Position numbers and translations under genes: made by a program
The notes under the pieces: generated by a model
The model's input: only the letters and a program-made list of their open reading frames with translations
Database searches by the model: none
Told to the model about the DNA's origin: nothing
Part shown: piece after piece, positions 16,888 to 49,206 of the stretch
How positions within the stretch are numbered: position 1 is the first letter of the stretch
Layout: every line of letters begins with the position of its first letter
Origin: a virus
Taxonomy: Duplodnaviria; Caudoviricetes
Virus record (IMG/VR): IMGVR_UViG_3300033485_000012
Span: 1-60,789 of that record
Length of the DNA: 60,789 nt
Direction: 5' to 3' (one strand)

Positions 16888-17307
16888 CTGCCATCGAAAT
16901 GGAGGCCGTGCTCAAGACGGTGTCCGAGCTCCAAACCAGGATCGACGCGCTTGAAAAGGCATTGTACGACGCGTGTTTGGAGAAGCATTTGCACGGGCAC
17001 ACTACGACCATTATCTCAACTGCAATCAAGTTGAAGGTCCCTGGCGTCAAAGAGTTGGTGGGCTGATGTCGCGGATCTACTCACCTTCGGGGCTCGTGGT
17101 GGGGAGCACCCGGGATTACGTCGAAGTGCGCCGACTGCGAGCGGCGTTTCCTGTGTGCGTCAAGGTAGTTAGCGACAACACCAAAAATCTAACCGAACCT
17201 ACCCAAAACCGCTTGCAGTCTCGTGAAAGACGTGGTATGCTGATTCAAGGTAGCGAAAACCAAGTTACCTAGTAGTGAGTGTAGTTTAACGTAGTGGTAA
17301 AACGAAA

Positions 17308-17432
17308 CAAATACCGTGAGATGCACGGGAATTCAAGCCTGTGGAGACGCTGTTATTAGCGCCGTAGAAGTAGGAAATAAGAACTCGCTAAGACCTACGA
17401 CGAGTAGGTTTGAGCAGGTTTGAATACATCGG
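17308..17432 (+). ncRNA. Orphan TnpB omega-RNA-like scaffold, copy 1
   Basis: ACCGTGAGATGCACGGGAATTCAAGCCTGTGGAG-hairpin-GAAGTAGGAA-hairpin; promoter TTGCAG(17213)-17-TATGCT; 3' end approximate. Confidence 0.6.
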
Positions 17433-17669
17433 AGTAATACATGACGGTATACACTGTAAGACTCAAGCCTCCCACAGACGTCGACCTGCGAGGTCGTTCT
17501 GATGTTGCCGCCTTGTTCAGTGGGCCTATCGATGTCCGAGTTAAGTCGGGTTCGAGGGGTTACGCGGCAATCAAGGGGCTTGCGATGGTTCCTTGGATTT
17601 ACGTTCAACCCTTCGCCGCTACCGTAATCGACGCTTGACAACCAAACCCCAACCCGTTACACTTCCCAT

Positions 17670-17960
17670 ATGAACACGATGCCACTGGAAGTCTTGGAAG
17701 CTTCGTTGAATGAAGGTCGCTACACCTCACTCGGGGGTTACCCGAAGTGCCTGATCATCAAGAACAACCAGTGTTTGTGTTGGGATTGCGTAAAAGAGAA
17801 CGAGGCGGAGATCCAGGAGTCCCTCGCGATGGGCGAGACCTCAAACACCTACTATCCTCTACAGGCTGAGGTGAACTGGGAAAATTCCGAGCTGTATTGC
17901 GACGAATGCGGCGAGCGGGTCGAATCGGCGTACGCAGAACCCACGGAGAACACACAATGA
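17670..17960 (+). CDS. Conserved hypothetical Zn-binding phage protein
   Basis: GGYP..CxxC...NWE..L.CDxCGER.ESAY; promoter at 17635. Confidence 0.7.
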   Translation: MNTMPLEVLEASLNEGRYTSLGGYPKCLIIKNNQCLCWDCVKENEAEIQESLAMGETSNTYYPLQAEVNWENSELYCDECGERVESAYAEPTENTQ

Positions 17961-18902: not shown

Positions 18903-18987
18903 GCCCGGGTGATGAAACGGTAGCCATAGTAGACTTAAAATCTACATCTCCTTACAGAGAGTGCGAGTTCGAGTCTCGCCCCGGGCA
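18903..18987 (+). tRNA. tRNA-Leu(TAA)
   Basis: Acceptor GCCCGGG/CCCGGGC, GTAGA-CT-TAA-AA-TCTAC, long variable arm, TTCGAG; no CCA encoded. Confidence 0.9.
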
Positions 18988-20177
18988 CTGTAAAACTCTA
19001 ACAATCGAGTGACTAATGGTCATAGTTCAAGTCGTATCTAGCAGCGGAGCGCAGTCTTACTTATGCGACACGCAGACCTGCTTTCCGCACTTCGTTGTGG
19101 ACTTGCACGACGCGTCCAAAATGGATGATGCTGTTGCGGCACGGTGGGTCCACTGGCTCAACTACAATCTCACGCGACATACCGCTTCCGTGTTGCGCGC
19201 CACAGAGTGACTTGTTATAATTGAACATGAAAAACAAGAGAGACATCGACTTCGACCTTACCATGGCGGGTATCTTCGGGTTCCTCGGTTTGGCACTTGC
19301 AGTTTTGGCTCTGTTGGCGTAAAAGGAAACACACAATGGCTACCTACCGCGCTTCAATTCAGCCCCACGAAGTTGACGCTCTTCCCATGATCCTCGAGAT
19401 CGAAGCCGACACCGATGCAGCGGCTCTTGAGCGCGCCATCAAGTGCACCGTCGACCCCAAGCGCGTCATCGGCCTCAAGCGACTGGACTGGGTTGATGTG
19501 TTGGAGGGGGCGAAGGTTGAGAATCTGGCGCAGTTGCATTCGTTCCGGGCTACATTGTCATGGCGTCATTGTGACGTCTTCAGGAATCTTCGTTTTGGAG
19601 CCACCTCCCCTGTCGCGGCTTACAAATACGCATTCGAAGCTTGCGATGGCGACGAAACAGTCACTGAGTTGATGCAGAAGGCGGGCGACACCTGGAAGAT
19701 TGTCAAGTTCGCAGACATGTGACTTGACTGCAAAGACGAGGTCGTTACACTTCGGTAAGGAGACACGATGAAAACTGTAGGCGACCTCGTCAAGCAACTC
19801 TGCAAAATCCACCCGTCGACCCCCATATCAATTGACTTGAGTGCGTTCGACCTCGACATGGGGGTTGTGGTCAGGGTCAAGACGATTTCTTCGAAACACG
19901 GACAAACCGCGGTTTTGGTTGTCGAGGCGGAACATGAATGACCTGCAAGTAGGATGCCATCTAGAGAAGCTGTATGCAACATACCTTCGCCGTCTCGAAC
20001 TCTTGATCGCAAATGAAGCCAAACCCGACTCACCCGCCATGTCGTTCACCTCCTTCAAGGTGCTTTGGGGTCGTTGGATTGACCGCTACTCACAGGGCGA
20101 GGACTCCCCGGAAGCTTGGGGCGAATGCTTCCTTGAACACGAGTTCGGACCGTTGGTGTAAATAATATAGTGATTCC

Positions 20178-20251
20178 GGGCCTATAGCTCAATCGGTTCG
20201 AGCCAGCGCCTCATAAGCGCCTAGATCTAGGTTCGAATCCTAGTGGGCCCA
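20178..20251 (+). tRNA. tRNA(CAT), Ile2- or Met-type
   Basis: GGGCCTA/TGGGCCC acceptor, GCGC-CT-CAT-AA-GCGC, GTTCGAATC. Confidence 0.85.
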
Positions 20252-20582
20252 TGCAGTAATCAACGCAGCAACCCAAGGAAAATTATGTCCACACTTGAAA
20301 CCGTTTTCGTGGCGCAAGTCGGCAAGGTCGGAACCCCGTTGACGTCGGGTGAAGTGTATGAGCGAGACCTCCCGTCGTGGGCCAATGAAATCGGTTGGGC
20401 TGATGGATCGGCCGCAGAATGGTCGCCAGGCGTTCTAGATGCCTCCAAGGTGCGCGCGTCGACACTTCTCGGAGTTCGGTACCTGTCCGAAGGACGAGCA
20501 AATGTGTTCCAAGTAACACGTGAAAGGGCTTGACGGAGTGAATCAAAGTCGTTATGCTTGGTGAAGAAGAAAGGGAATTCAA

Positions 20583-20915
20583 ATGCATGCAATCATCCTC
20601 GATGACTTGACCGAACGCCACGAACAGTTCACCGCCCGCTACCCAAGTTATGACATCGCCCACTGCTACAATGTAGCCCAGTTCGTGCATCACCTCGTAA
20701 CCTATCCTGGACATATCGACTTGGTGTCTTTGGATCACGACCTTGGCAATGAATTGGACGTTGGAAACGGCATGGATGCGGCGAAGGTTCTCGTCAATTA
20801 CATCGACAAAGACACCACTCTGCGCGTGCACTCCTTCAACACTCCCAGGGCACTGGCTATGCTCGAATTCTTCAAGGCTTGTGGATTCTTCGGCTGTGGG
20901 CTCGCGAGATTGTAA
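20583..20915 (+). CDS. Cyclic-phosphate-processing receiver-like domain protein
   Basis: ILDD...VSLDHDLG...G.D.AK...VHS.N motif set; lies inside the tRNA cluster. Confidence 0.7.
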   Translation: MHAIILDDLTERHEQFTARYPSYDIAHCYNVAQFVHHLVTYPGHIDLVSLDHDLGNELDVGNGMDAAKVLVNYIDKDTTLRVHSFNTPRALAMLEFFKACGFFGCGLARL

Positions 20916-20922
20916 GAAGTAA

Positions 20923-20993
20923 TGGGACTTCGTCCAATGGTAGGACAACGGACTTTGACTCCGTTTATGTAGGTCCGAATCCTACAGTCCCAA
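20923..20993 (+). tRNA. tRNA-Gln(TTG)
   Basis: TGGGACT/AGTCCCA, ACGGA-CT-TTG-AC-TCCGT; variant T-loop TCCGAAT. Confidence 0.85.
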
Positions 20994-20999
20994 TTGTGA

Positions 21000-21071
21000 A
21001 CACCAATAGCTCAGAGGTAGAGCGGGGCACTTACACTGCCTAGGTCGGGGGTTCGAAACCCTCTTGGTGTA
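21000..21071 (+). tRNA. tRNA-Val(TAC)
   Basis: ACACCAA/TTGGTGT, GGCA-CT-TAC-AC-TGCC. Confidence 0.85.
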
Positions 21072-21075
21072 TGTA

Positions 21076-21149
21076 GGTCCGGTCGCTCAATCGGCAGAAG
21101 CAGACGGCTTAGAATCGTCACAGTGGGGGTTCGAATCCCCCTCGGACCA
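21076..21149 (+). tRNA. tRNA with TAG (Leu) anticodon and short variable loop
   Basis: GGTCCGG/TCGGACC, GACGG-CT-TAG-AA-TCGTC, GGGGG-TTCGAAT-CCCCC. Confidence 0.8.
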
Positions 21150-21167
21150 TGGTTGACAAAGCAGTGC

Positions 21168-21241
21168 ACACCCGTAGCTCAGTTGGTTAGAGCGCGCGCC
21201 TGATATGCGTGAGGTCGGTGGTTCGAGTCCACCCGGGTGTA
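21168..21241 (+). tRNA. tRNA-Ile(GAT)
   Basis: ACACCCG/CGGGTGT, CT-GAT-AT loop, GTTCGAGTC. Confidence 0.9.
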
Positions 21242-33533: not shown

Positions 33534-33548
33534 AGCATTTCCGGCCCG

Positions 33549-34592
33549 TTAAGGCTCGGCTCCTTCATTAAGGGCTTGATGCTTCAAGCCGCGTTTCAAG
33601 ATGTTGATGGCTGAGTTCACGTCACGATCATGACGCGCCCCGCAATCACACACCCATTCACGCTTATTCAAACCCGCCAATCCTTTCGGACCGGTTTTTG
33701 AACCACAGACGTGGCAGGTTTGGGTTGTAAAGTTTTCCATGACCTCAGTATAGATTGCGCCGTTCCTAATGGACTTGTAACGCAACATGCTTCTGAAGTT
33801 AGACCAACCTACGTCCAACACGGACTTAGCTATGATGGTCTTGGATAATTTACTGGATGAAACGTCTCCTACGAAAATGTGGTTATATTTCTTCGTTACG
33901 TTGTTAGACAACTTGTGGTGGAAATCCTTGCGAACAGCTTTGATCTTTTGATGGATTTTACGGACTTGTTTACGCTTGTTGGCTCGTTGGGCAACAGCTA
34001 GCTTACGGGCGTACTTCGATAAGATCCGGGGATTGGCGATTTTAGTGCCATCAGAAAATGCGGCGAAGTCTTTGAGTCCTAAGTCGACACCGACAGGCGA
34101 GTCGCCTTCGCGGCTTGTCGGCGTAGGTAACCCTACCTTAACGTTCAAAAACCATCGCCCTTGCGAGTCTTGACTGAAGTTGGAGCCGAATAAGATCTTC
34201 GCCTCTGCCGGTAGCGGCCGATCGAGGAACACCCGGAAGACGTGTCCCATGAAGATGAAATCGCCATTGCGATACTTAAGTGATGCGGACTTAATCGGAA
34301 CCCAACCCAAAGATTTCCGACTCCGCCACTTCAGCCAAGGCTTTTTGCGTTGCGTGCGGCTTTGAACATATTGCCGAGCTATAGCTTGAATGGAATTGGA
34401 GTTTAATCCGAGGCCCTCAGAGCTTCCCGCGGTGAGGTGGTTCAAATCAAACTCACCTAGCCACTTACGATGCGCTTTAACTGCTTGGCGCTGCACGTCG
34501 TTGCAGTAGTTCCATACAAAGTTGACTTTACGGGCGAGTCCGTTTAGGAACCCTCCGTAAGACTTGACCCTGTAGTGGTAGGTGAGTTGCAT
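33549..34592 (-). CDS. tnpB: TnpB-family RNA-guided endonuclease (IS200/IS605-derived), no adjacent tnpA
   Basis: VNFVWNY, GVDLG (RuvC-I), DFHHKLS, TQTCHVCG...CDCG zinc finger, DRDVNSAINI (RuvC-III). Confidence 0.92.
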   Translation of the reverse strand: MQLTYHYRVKSYGGFLNGLARKVNFVWNYCNDVQRQAVKAHRKWLGEFDLNHLTAGSSEGLGLNSNSIQAIARQYVQSRTQRKKPWLKWRSRKSLGWVPIKSASLKYRNGDFIFMGHVFRVFLDRPLPAEAKILFGSNFSQDSQGRWFLNVKVGLPTPTSREGDSPVGVDLGLKDFAAFSDGTKIANPRILSKYARKLAVAQRANKRKQVRKIHQKIKAVRKDFHHKLSNNVTKKYNHIFVGDVSSSKLSKTIIAKSVLDVGWSNFRSMLRYKSIRNGAIYTEVMENFTTQTCHVCGSKTGPKGLAGLNKREWVCDCGARHDRDVNSAINILKRGLKHQALNEGAEP

Positions 34593-48144: not shown

Positions 48145-48508
48145 ACACTATTTCGTGTCGTACCCCAAATGCCCTAAGTGCGGGAAGGACAATAAGAGGT
48201 TTCACGGCTTCGAACACGTAGAAATCTGTGAATACTTCTTGTTCAGGGACGTTACGGCGCCACAAATTAAGTGGCTGCCTTTAACAAGGAGACAGCAAAT
48301 CAAGTGTATTAAAGCGGCCTTTGATATGCTCCACATCGAACATCGCTGCTTTAAGATGCGGTCTAATTCTGGGTGGGCATTGTACTTGTTCGCACCAAAG
48401 ACTACAGTAGATTTGGTGAATTTGTACTACTCCGACAAGTCGCCTTATGGGGAAATGTCCTTGTCGGAGTTTTTGGGCGCTACGTTAGGTGTTACGGGAG
48501 GGTCGTAG
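48134..48508 (+). CDS. Zn-finger protein with 'MxLxEFL' box (tandem paralog)
   Basis: PKCPKCG..H.EICEY; ends YYSDKSPYGEMSLSEFLGATLG. Confidence 0.7.
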   Translation: MEPEHYFVSYPKCPKCGKDNKRFHGFEHVEICEYFLFRDVTAPQIKWLPLTRRQQIKCIKAAFDMLHIEHRCFKMRSNSGWALYLFAPKTTVDLVNLYYSDKSPYGEMSLSEFLGATLGVTGGS

Positions 48509-48968
48509 CGTTCGTATCAGGGGTTTCGTCGTTTGTGACGGATTCATCGTCGCAACGAAGCGCAATGTAAGTCACAGTGCACGACTCGGGCTGACGGTGG
48601 GCGAGTGCTGTGTTGTAGCCAGTAGGTCTGACCGAGCGGAATTTAGCCATGACTTTGTGCGTCTGGCGGTCAAGCGCCGTCATCGAAATGTACTCATGAT
48701 TCAATAGATCGGCCAGCTTCGGAACTCCGCCTTCAATATGGGGTCCGTGGTCGATTACGCGATAACCACTACAAGTGAGCGTGGTGGCATCCATAGAGGT
48801 GTAAATGGATTCAACCGGGCCGTACGAGCCTAACACAAAAATTGGTTCGACGGAATAATTCACACCCCATGAGATGTCAGTGAAAATGCCTACAGCACGC
48901 GACGTGTTGGTTGCTGGGTCGTCAAGGAAAACGACTCCTCGCGCACCTGTCATTACTTTACCCGACAT
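48492..48968 (-). CDS. Tail tube protein (putative)
   Basis: 158 aa, TGAR....VG....S....Y..EP..VLG...P.E pattern of myovirus tubes; AAGGAG SD. Confidence 0.65.
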   Translation of the reverse strand: MSGKVMTGARGVVFLDDPATNTSRAVGIFTDISWGVNYSVEPIFVLGSYGPVESIYTSMDATTLTCSGYRVIDHGPHIEGGVPKLADLLNHEYISMTALDRQTHKVMAKFRSVRPTGYNTALAHRQPESCTVTYIALRCDDESVTNDETPDTNATTLP

Positions 48969-49030
48969 TATCCTACTCCTTGCCGGTATGCCGGCGGAAA
49001 GTTTCTATGGACAAGATTGGTGCTGCGTGT

Positions 49031-49206
49031 GTTGATGCTCCAAAGGACGACACCTTTGAATTCCTGCTTCGATGCTGGCAACATCACCAGCTCCACAGGC
49101 TTGAATTCCCGTGCATCCCACGGTATTTGCGATTTGGTGGGTACGAGTCTGATTCTGTGGGCGACGATCATGGGATTAGTATACCACGTTGTTGTGAAAT
49201 CGTAAA
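49031..49206 (-). mobile_element. Internally deleted tnpB element: promoter, 15 N-terminal codons and omega-RNA-like scaffold (copy 2)
   Basis: TTTACG-17-TATACT, ATG MIVAHRIRLVPTKSQ (TnpB N-terminus-like), then the scaffold ending TCAAC. Confidence 0.65.

Follow-up and report, generated by a model that had tools for sequence, protein, structure and literature searches.

Two omega-RNA scaffolds without a tnpB gene in a large wetland phage are deletion derivatives of tnpB elements

Two conserved loci in a phage genome fragment

Can the guide-RNA part of a TnpB insertion element stand alone in a phage genome, and is such an orphan a usable module or a leftover? The question is raised by two loci in the IMG/VR virus record IMGVR_UViG_3300033485_000012 (Caudoviricetes), a stretch of 60,789 nt (hereafter the window) estimated to represent ~32% of the genome of a large, uncultured wetland phage, and whose DNA is present in full in one wetland metagenome run, possibly the source sample. 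A preliminary description, prepared from the letters alone, had reported a near-identical inverted repeat at the two loci and had taken both for orphan omega-RNAs with their own promoters and no tnpB open reading frame (ORF). The repeat is found at the positions described: CAAATACCGTGAGATGCACGGGAATTCAAGCCTGTGGAG at 17308-17346(+) is identical to the reverse complement of 49091-49129 at 38/39 bases, and this 39-nt core has only these two sites in the window (up to three mismatches), with a chance expectation of 0.00 in 100 shuffles. We show below that both loci, copy 1 and copy 2, are omega-RNA scaffolds and deletion derivatives of tnpB elements. We further consider it likely that they are gene-less, promoter-bearing derivatives of the IS200/IS605 superfamily that could be used as guide-only modules in trans.

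The sole mismatch in the core, A versus G, is a loop position of the 5-bp hairpin CCGTG-NGATG-CACGG. Past the core the copies keep a common architecture with different sequence, as had been described: a variable hairpin (CGCTG..TAGCG in copy 1 versus GCTGG..CCAGC in copy 2), the motif GAAG(T/C)AGGAA starting exactly 20 nt past the core in both, and a terminal hairpin (AGACCTAC-GACGA-GTAGGTTT versus CAAAGG-TGTCGT-CCTTTG). No significant similarity between the copies is seen elsewhere, given that 240/300 shuffles of the upstream flanks and 16/300 of the downstream flanks score at least as high as the real sequences. What is common to both copies is an RNA-level architecture, not a protein. Two other readings of the repeat were tried and set aside. 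A tRNA-like (T-arm) reading of the core, made by eye, found no support from ARAGORN or Rfam, and a nut/put-like antitermination leader, suggested by two copies behind promoters with a 5-bp/5-nt hairpin, was dropped after the link to the 3' end of tnpB described below.

The core belongs to a family of TnpB omega-RNA scaffolds

The 19-mer GGAATTCAAGCCTGTGGAG was found in 9 stretches of the viral collection and in 70 of the genome collection, the latter from Selenomonadaceae, Clostridia, Thermoplasmatota, Thermotogae, Actinomycetota, a cyanobacterium and others. At the 3' end of ~400-aa tnpB genes from other viruses, from bacteria and from archaea it is followed by GAAGCAGGAA, so that the motif pair which the preliminary description had given as typical of TnpB right ends and omega-RNAs does sit where it should. 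A motif resembling GAAGCAGGAA lies within 160 nt in 73/80 unique occurrences of the 19-mer (71 of these 73 outside the window), while the remaining seven comprise four that seem unrelated and three that are truncated at the end of the locus or interrupted by an insertion. At four loci (L003, L004, L005 and L007) the core sits at the end of an ORF of 387-408 aa with CxxC and DRD motifs, and all five of the tested ORFs that run into a scaffold are TnpB by Pfam (OrfB_IS605 plus the Cas12f1-like TNB domain), with an N-terminal HTH_OrfB_IS605 in four. Having at least 1,000 nt upstream, 41 of the 71 scaffolds outside the window could be evaluated for a tnpB frame: 13 have one of at least 250 aa that extends into the scaffold, 26 have less than 150 aa and two are intermediate. 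Gene-less copies are thus commoner in this family than full ones.

The family follows a common order: (A/G)UACC and stem 1 come first, then the 19-nt core, at least one variable hairpin, GAAGCAGGAA, the terminal hairpin and finally a short tail that often reads ..UCAC or ..UCAA. The stretch past the tail, where close relatives diverge, is the predicted guide. Both window copies carry the invariant core GGAAUUCAAGCCUGUGGAG exactly, preceded by (A/G)UACC, and keep the 5-bp stem 1 directly 5' of it (CCGUG/CACGG). In the family GAAGCAGGAA lies 18-57 nt past the core with a stem between, compared with 20 nt in the window copies. A covariance model, R1, was built from 32 aligned family scaffolds with the window copies excluded, and the window was searched with filters off. 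Confirming the covariance-model check that had been proposed, R1 matches both copies end to end (model positions 1-88), copy 2 at 62.5 bits (E 1.4e-13) and copy 1 at 59.0 bits (E 1e-12; Table 1). A third site was not found in the window, where the next best match has an E-value of 1.9; the further copies that had been thought worth looking for are therefore limited there to these two. Stem 1 covaries within the family, with 4/5 pairs changing on both sides (48 cells), a result equalled by 0/500 shuffles and with much lower values in slid controls. The CCUG:CAGG helix is invariant in the family and hence uninformative on pairing.

In copy 1, the minimum free energy (MFE) and centroid structures both contain all three hairpins. 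They also contain an 11-bp helix with one G-U pair between the core segment AUUCAAGCCUG (17331-17341) and the tail segment CAGGUUUGAAU (17414-17424), which would compete with the CCUG:CAGG pairing of the family; copy 2 has GAAUUC..CAGGAAUUC instead. Set beside family tails such as GGAGCGTTCAA and GAGCAGGTCAC, the tail of copy 1 is the less typical one, and that of copy 2, GAGCAUCAA, is similar to GGAGCGUUCAA in L083, L099 and L128.

General resources add little to this assignment. At gathering thresholds Rfam gives six tRNAs only in the window and no family matching the scaffold, and at E<=10 it gives nothing relevant for copy 1. For copy 2, 49057-49138(-) has a sub-threshold match over the full model length to RF02269 (HPnc0580, a Helicobacter pylori small RNA) at 15.4 bits versus a gathering threshold of 37 (E 5.4), which we treat as a lead only; RF02269 might itself be an IS605-family omega-RNA. 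A blastn search of both loci against the GenBank phage collection gave no match. Of the longer, lineage-specific patterns, a 34-mer was absent from viral contigs and a 33-mer from metagenome contigs, and a close parent element was not found.

Both copies are what remained of tnpB elements after internal deletion

As had been claimed, neither copy adjoins a tnpB ORF. The overlap between the scaffold and the 3' end of tnpB, a feature that defines the full element and not the RNA, is accordingly missing at both loci. What copy 2 does contain is a 67-aa open frame in which a tnpB start (MIVAHRIRLVPT..) is fused to a frame overlapping the scaffold. Its N-terminus reads MIVAHRIRLVPTKSQ, and the N-termini of scaffold-linked TnpBs read MILRAYKVQLDVNNKQ, MLKSFKVMLVPNKRQ, MKTYRYRLYPTEEQ and similar. 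The motif [FYH][KR]xx[LIVA]xP[NT]xxQ, which was derived after viewing the sequences compared, has a single match among all six translated frames of the window, and this match covers residues 5-15 of the copy 2 frame. The frame then goes on as ..KSQIPWDAREFKPVE, in the phase in which L003 encodes the C-terminal tail of its TnpB (..KNQIPREPREFKPVE). Taken together, the N-terminal motif and a scaffold lying in the C-terminal frame of L003 identify copy 2 as a tnpB element minus the middle of its gene, ~1.1 kb. The frame has no Pfam or PHROG match and is probably not functional as a protein.

Copy 1 has the promoter motif, the core and an A-rich run ahead of AUACC in common with copy 2, and its corresponding frame is broken by TGA, TAG and TAG and has no start. 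A functional protein gene was found inside neither element, as the old frame contains no ORF in copy 1 and only the remnant one in copy 2. Recoding of stop codons (TGA in copy 1 versus TGG in copy 2, and TAG versus TCG and CAG) was considered and rejected, owing to a further stop upstream and to conservation at the RNA level. For copy 1 both ends of the proposed element are inferred, the left end from the start of similarity to copy 2 (AA.. ACGTGGTAT) and the right end by analogy with the family tail (..TTGAA).

Promoter-like sites, predicted guides and insertion sites

Upstream of each copy lies ACGTGGTAT(G/A)CT, in agreement with the promoters that had been described, and GTGGTATRCT occurs exactly at 17232-17241(+) and 49178-49187(-) and nowhere else in the window. 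The promoter-like site of copy 1 was read by eye and scores 8/12, under the threshold of the promoter scan, which recovers that of copy 2. The A of the ATG that opens the remnant frame, at 49171, is the seventh base past the -10 element of copy 2. Between either scaffold and the next ORF on the same strand, a terminator-like site was not found.

The predicted guide of each copy is its own 3' flank, as in any TnpB insertion element, and for copy 1 its placement in Table 1 is close to the start after about 17430 that had been put forward. Neither guide has a second match in the window with up to three mismatches. Guides that point to their own insertion sites would fit homing and retention, rather than a programmable targeting of hosts or rival phages.

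The insertion site of copy 2 could be compared with two sibling phages (L012 and L013), in which the orthologue of the downstream 158-aa protein is 85-86% identical and copy 2 is absent. The siblings and the window become homologous again at ..CAC(G/A)..GCACCAATCTTGTCC, directly past the tail of copy 2 and inside the predicted guide. Excising 49193-49032 joins the flanks as TACGATTTCAC and CACACGCAGCACC, and L012 has TACCATTCTAC and CACGACCGCACC at the matching place; 8/11 bases left of the junction are alike, the genes upstream differ, and the similarity is not significant by shuffling. This arrangement is suggestive of copy 2 being a discrete insertion. A scan with the leader of copy 2 returned only the known siblings L012 and L013, and no further ones. 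For copy 1, an empty site was not found by DNA search of four sibling records, nor were relatives found by protein scans with its 184-aa and 65-aa neighbours.

Since each copy is co-oriented with, and directly upstream of, a phage ORF, with no terminator-like site between, the elements may have been taken over as promoter or leader cassettes, on which the phage would rely for expression of the 65-aa ORF and of the gene for the 158-aa virion protein, with or without a role of the RNA for a TnpB. Several observations agree with such an exaptation: the virion gene of L012 and L013 has its own TGGCAT(A/C)AT -10-like box, at the place of which the window reads TGGGGTTTA, at best a -35 for the -10 of the element, and the guide region of copy 1 includes the ribosome-binding site and the ATG of the next ORF. 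However, insertion just upstream of genes is common across the scaffold family and need not mean exaptation, and the 5' flank does not resemble that of the siblings significantly by shuffling. We regard the exaptation as rather improbable, although it is compatible with the guide-only use in trans that we favor.

Table 1. Coordinates of the two orphan loci and of other features discussed in the text
Feature	Position	Strand	Remarks
Copy 1, promoter-like site	17213..17241	+	TTGCAG 17213-17218, 17-nt spacer, TG-extended -10 TATGCT 17236-17241
Copy 1, proposed gene-less element	17226..17424	+	199 bp
Copy 1, omega-RNA scaffold, 5' module	17311..17376	+	AUACC, stem 1 CCGUG/CACGG, invariant 19-nt core, variable hairpin, GAAGUAGGAA; R1 match
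Copy 1, terminal hairpin and 3' tail	17391..17424	+	17391-17398 pairs with 17404-17411; tail GAGCAGGTTTGAA 17412-17424
Copy 1, predicted guide TACATCGGAGTAATACATGA	17425..17444	+	Placed by comparison with the family; spans GGAG ribosome-binding site and ATG (17441) of 65-aa ORF 17441-17638
Copy 2, promoter-like site	49178..49206	-	TTTACG, 17-nt spacer, TG-extended TATACT; promoter scan 9/12 with TG, sigma-70-type
Copy 2, proposed gene-less element	49032..49193	-	162 bp; between TTTCAC (49199-49194) and guide
Copy 2, open frame across the element	48968..49171	-	67 aa; tnpB start fused to frame overlapping scaffold
Copy 2, omega-RNA scaffold, 5' module	49061..49126	-	R1 match
Copy 2, terminal hairpin and tail GAGCATCAA	49032..49060	-	Hairpin present in MFE; family tails compared
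Copy 2, predicted guide CACACGCAGCACCAATCTTG	49012..49031	-	5' leader of 158-aa virion-protein gene 48492-48968
Resident tnpB, short clade	33549..34592	-	347 aa; PF07282 75 bits, PF01385 54 bits; not part of the orphans
Scaffolds of phage G005 (L003, L006, L008, L010 x2)	113191, 141249, 145848, 148766, 181043		

Some neighboring features of the window may be recorded here. The 158-aa protein has a weak match to a virion structural protein (phrog_985, E 2.4e-4) and no Pfam match, and the more specific label of tail tube protein, considered at first, is not backed by these searches. In 17635-17960(+), a strong promoter-like site (TTGACA-17-TACACT, 10/12) lies ahead of a 96-aa CxxC-rich ORF that matches phrog_18452 ("DNA ligase", E 1e-21) and is far too short for a ligase. 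Six tRNA genes (Leu-taa, Met, Gln, Val, Leu-tag and Ile) occupy 18903-21241(+), 1.5 kb downstream of copy 1.

The resident TnpB belongs to another clade

The cognate tnpB for which a search had been proposed is not in the window. The sole TnpB there is a member of a different, short clade that has a guide RNA of its own, and the scaffold was found in 0/52 other viral records of that clade. As this is the only TnpB in view, the two orphan RNAs could be thought to supply it with additional guides. There is indeed a resemblance between the RNA types in their 3' halves (..GAAGGAATCCCCGTCC..GGGGAGGATGTCAA in the short-clade omega-RNA versus ..GAAGCAGGAATCCCCGTCG..GAGAGTGTCAA in the long scaffold), and an excerpt of a published study states that standalone omega-RNAs can act in trans (PMC10691335).

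Nevertheless, such a partnership is very unlikely. The resident TnpB is only 28-30% identical to the scaffold-linked TnpBs and does not have their N-terminal motif, and its clade has G-D/N where long-type TnpBs carry the RuvC-II Glu. (Branches with a rearranged RuvC-II are enriched in viruses, as far as the excerpted text of PMC10691335 goes.) It also has a compact omega-RNA of its own at ~33535-33600, which ends ..GGCCGGAAATGCTTTG at the stop codon, just before the next gene. The same holds for its 58 viral homologues, in which a compact omega-RNA ends ..GGAATCCCCGTCCTTTAGGGCGGGGAGGATGTCAA at the stop codon and the guide follows, the guides being different in the siblings. Within 4 kb of these 58 loci the 19-nt core (up to four mismatches) was not found, apart from one likely chance match. 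Among short-clade viral records, R1 matches none of four siblings and none of 48 others, 11 of which are at least 90% complete, and it finds 5/5 copies in a control phage. In the three closest viral homologues (L016, L017 and L018, 82-85% identical) the flanks past tnpB are different, and so the resident element appears to have been recently mobile.

Leftovers or guide-only modules

Several observations weigh against our interpretation of the two orphans as usable modules, or against the identification on which it builds. First, the family was gathered via the exact 19-mer and that portion of the R1 match is consequently circular, with AUACC, stem 1, the spacing and GAAGCAGGAA independent of this recruitment. 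Second, a long-type TnpB is not present in the window, and four sibling fragments have no R1 match and one short-clade TnpB match each. Third, the RNAs themselves are imperfect: copy 1 has a U (in GAAGUAGGAA) where 32/32 family members have C, copy 2 being exact, and 14 additional nt ahead of its terminal hairpin; the MFE structure of copy 2 holds the terminal hairpin only, stem 1 being absent; and fold stability is not above that of shuffles (z = -1.46 for copy 1 and -0.80 for copy 2). Finally, concerning the element ends, the bases left of the proposed left ends differ (CTCGTG versus TTTCAC) and no common target-adjacent motif (TAM) was seen, and in neither copy was a left-end hairpin identified, the right-end hairpin being present.

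A rival reading is that the loci are inert scars, decaying tnpB leftovers that no nuclease uses any longer, in which the core reflects constraint in the functional parents and too little time for decay. The absence of a cognate TnpB from the window and the four sibling fragments, the changed invariant base, the insert and the three stops in the old frame of copy 1, the unexceptional fold energies and the missing common TAM all speak in favor of this reading. On the other hand, the core is kept at 38/39 positions while the flanks are as unlike as shuffled sequence, a pattern that neutral decay from one ancestor would hardly give; the three helices are intact in both copies despite their different sequences; the promoter motif is kept in both; and only ~32% of the genome is in view. 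The divergent hairpins could also have been inherited from two functional parents and are no proof of selection after gene loss. Inert scars are, in our judgment, a possible but unlikely explanation.

The reading that we prefer, gene-less derivatives that could be used in trans, runs as follows. The parent is a tnpB element of the type whose omega-RNA has the invariant core, and an internal deletion took nearly all of tnpB. This left the left-end promoter with its TG-extended -10, about twelve codons from the start of tnpB (still legible in copy 2, decayed in copy 1), a complete omega-RNA scaffold and the right end. From the left-end promoter, an RNA would be made that comprises the scaffold, ~20 nt of flanking phage DNA as guide and the downstream phage gene. 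A compatible long-type TnpB, supplied by the unsequenced two thirds of the phage genome, a co-infecting phage or the host, could load this orphan RNA, and the activity of the modules would depend on such a TnpB, which is not in view. Once loaded, the nuclease would cleave sibling genomes that do not have the element at the exact insertion site, and repair from an element-bearing genome would copy the element in, making the modules guide-only passengers served in trans. Homing and retention of this kind is the mechanism described for TnpB elements. For the orphan RNAs, transcription, loading into TnpB and cutting are inferred.

A bolder proposal, which we hold to be quite improbable, is that the phage maintains these omega-RNA genes, which are driven by promoters and encode no protein, to serve as a guide-only gene drive or a weapon between phages. 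A long-type TnpB from the unseen part of the genome, a co-infecting phage or the host would then cut element-free siblings at the leader of the virion-protein gene and at the start of the 65-aa gene, converting or excluding them in co-infection, and the elements would also have taken over the promoters of those genes.

Relation to known systems and implications

The closest comparison is with full-length tnpB elements (e.g., L004, L005, L007, L128 and L135). Their scaffolds follow the same order as in the window copies, from AUACC and stem 1 through the 19-nt core, variable hairpin and GAAGCAGGAA to the terminal hairpin and tail, and the N-terminal motif of their TnpB is that of the copy 2 remnant; they encode a TnpB of 370-410 aa, whereas the window copies lack ~1.1 kb of coding sequence. 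TldR proteins, which are nuclease-dead TnpBs, are found in a phage or prophage setting in some cases. Together with guide RNAs they act as transcription factors, according to the excerpted report (PMC10705468), and the likeness to our loci consists of a TnpB-derived guide RNA near promoters. Unlike in TldR systems, no TldR- or TnpB-like gene adjoins either window copy, and the guides correspond to their own flanks and not to a distant promoter.

Guide RNAs that stand apart from their effector have been described before. Standalone omega-RNAs with no effector or transposase beside them are found in genomes that also have effector-bearing loci, and they work in trans with compatible effectors, as stated in the excerpt of PMC10691335, which credits Altae-Tran et al. 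2021. Like these RNAs of OMEGA systems (TnpB/IscB), the window copies consist of a scaffold and a flanking guide, with no effector or transposase gene adjoining. They differ in having no compatible effector in view, in their phage setting and in the promoter-like site that each possesses. A second parallel is with PATEs, palindrome-associated and minimal non-autonomous IS200/IS605 elements in which the transposon ends and the omega-RNA are retained and TnpB (and TnpA) must be supplied in trans; the excerpted preprint states that they "often encode omega-RNAs" needing TnpB in trans (Meers et al., 10.1101/2023.03.14.532601). The window copies are comparable, but show a right-end hairpin with no left-end hairpin or common TAM seen, and copy 2, which retains the tnpB start and N-terminal codons, has the look of a plain internal deletion and not of a streamlined PATE.

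Gene-less scaffolds of the family were also observed elsewhere. The complete 206-kb, AT-rich phage G005 has one tnpB with the scaffold and four gene-less scaffolds with different 3' flanks (Table 1). One of these lies directly past a tRNA-like 3' end, and in two of the orphans a left part (..GATTACTGTCTTTAGGTGGTAATATGAATG) is retained, which is similar to the right-end hairpin and has a TG-extended -10. In Selenomonadaceae and relatives (L075-L141), there are dozens of gene-less copies per metagenome-assembled genome, in which a common left part, TTCCAC..GGAAACCTG.AT.TGTACCCG, is fused straight to the scaffold. Many of these copies are only 3-15 nt upstream of an ATG, their tail (..CAGTAACGG) abutting the start of a host gene, and two Selenomonadaceae loci (L103 and L141) have runs of AATTAGGAA-like short repeats inside the scaffold.

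The gene-less TnpB guide-RNA module is thus of a kind already described in bacteria, to which the two window copies add a phage example. The case confirms that TnpB guide-RNA scaffolds can be recognized by a reader who has only the sequence, and it provides a clean phage instance of guide-only TnpB derivatives, where the internal deletion in copy 2, with the tnpB start still attached, directly shows the way in which modules of this kind originate. Given a compatible nuclease, the modules would bias inheritance among co-infecting phages and act as natural trans-acting guides, and they would bear on how separate guide genes, such as those for crRNA and tracrRNA, could emerge from transposon RNAs.

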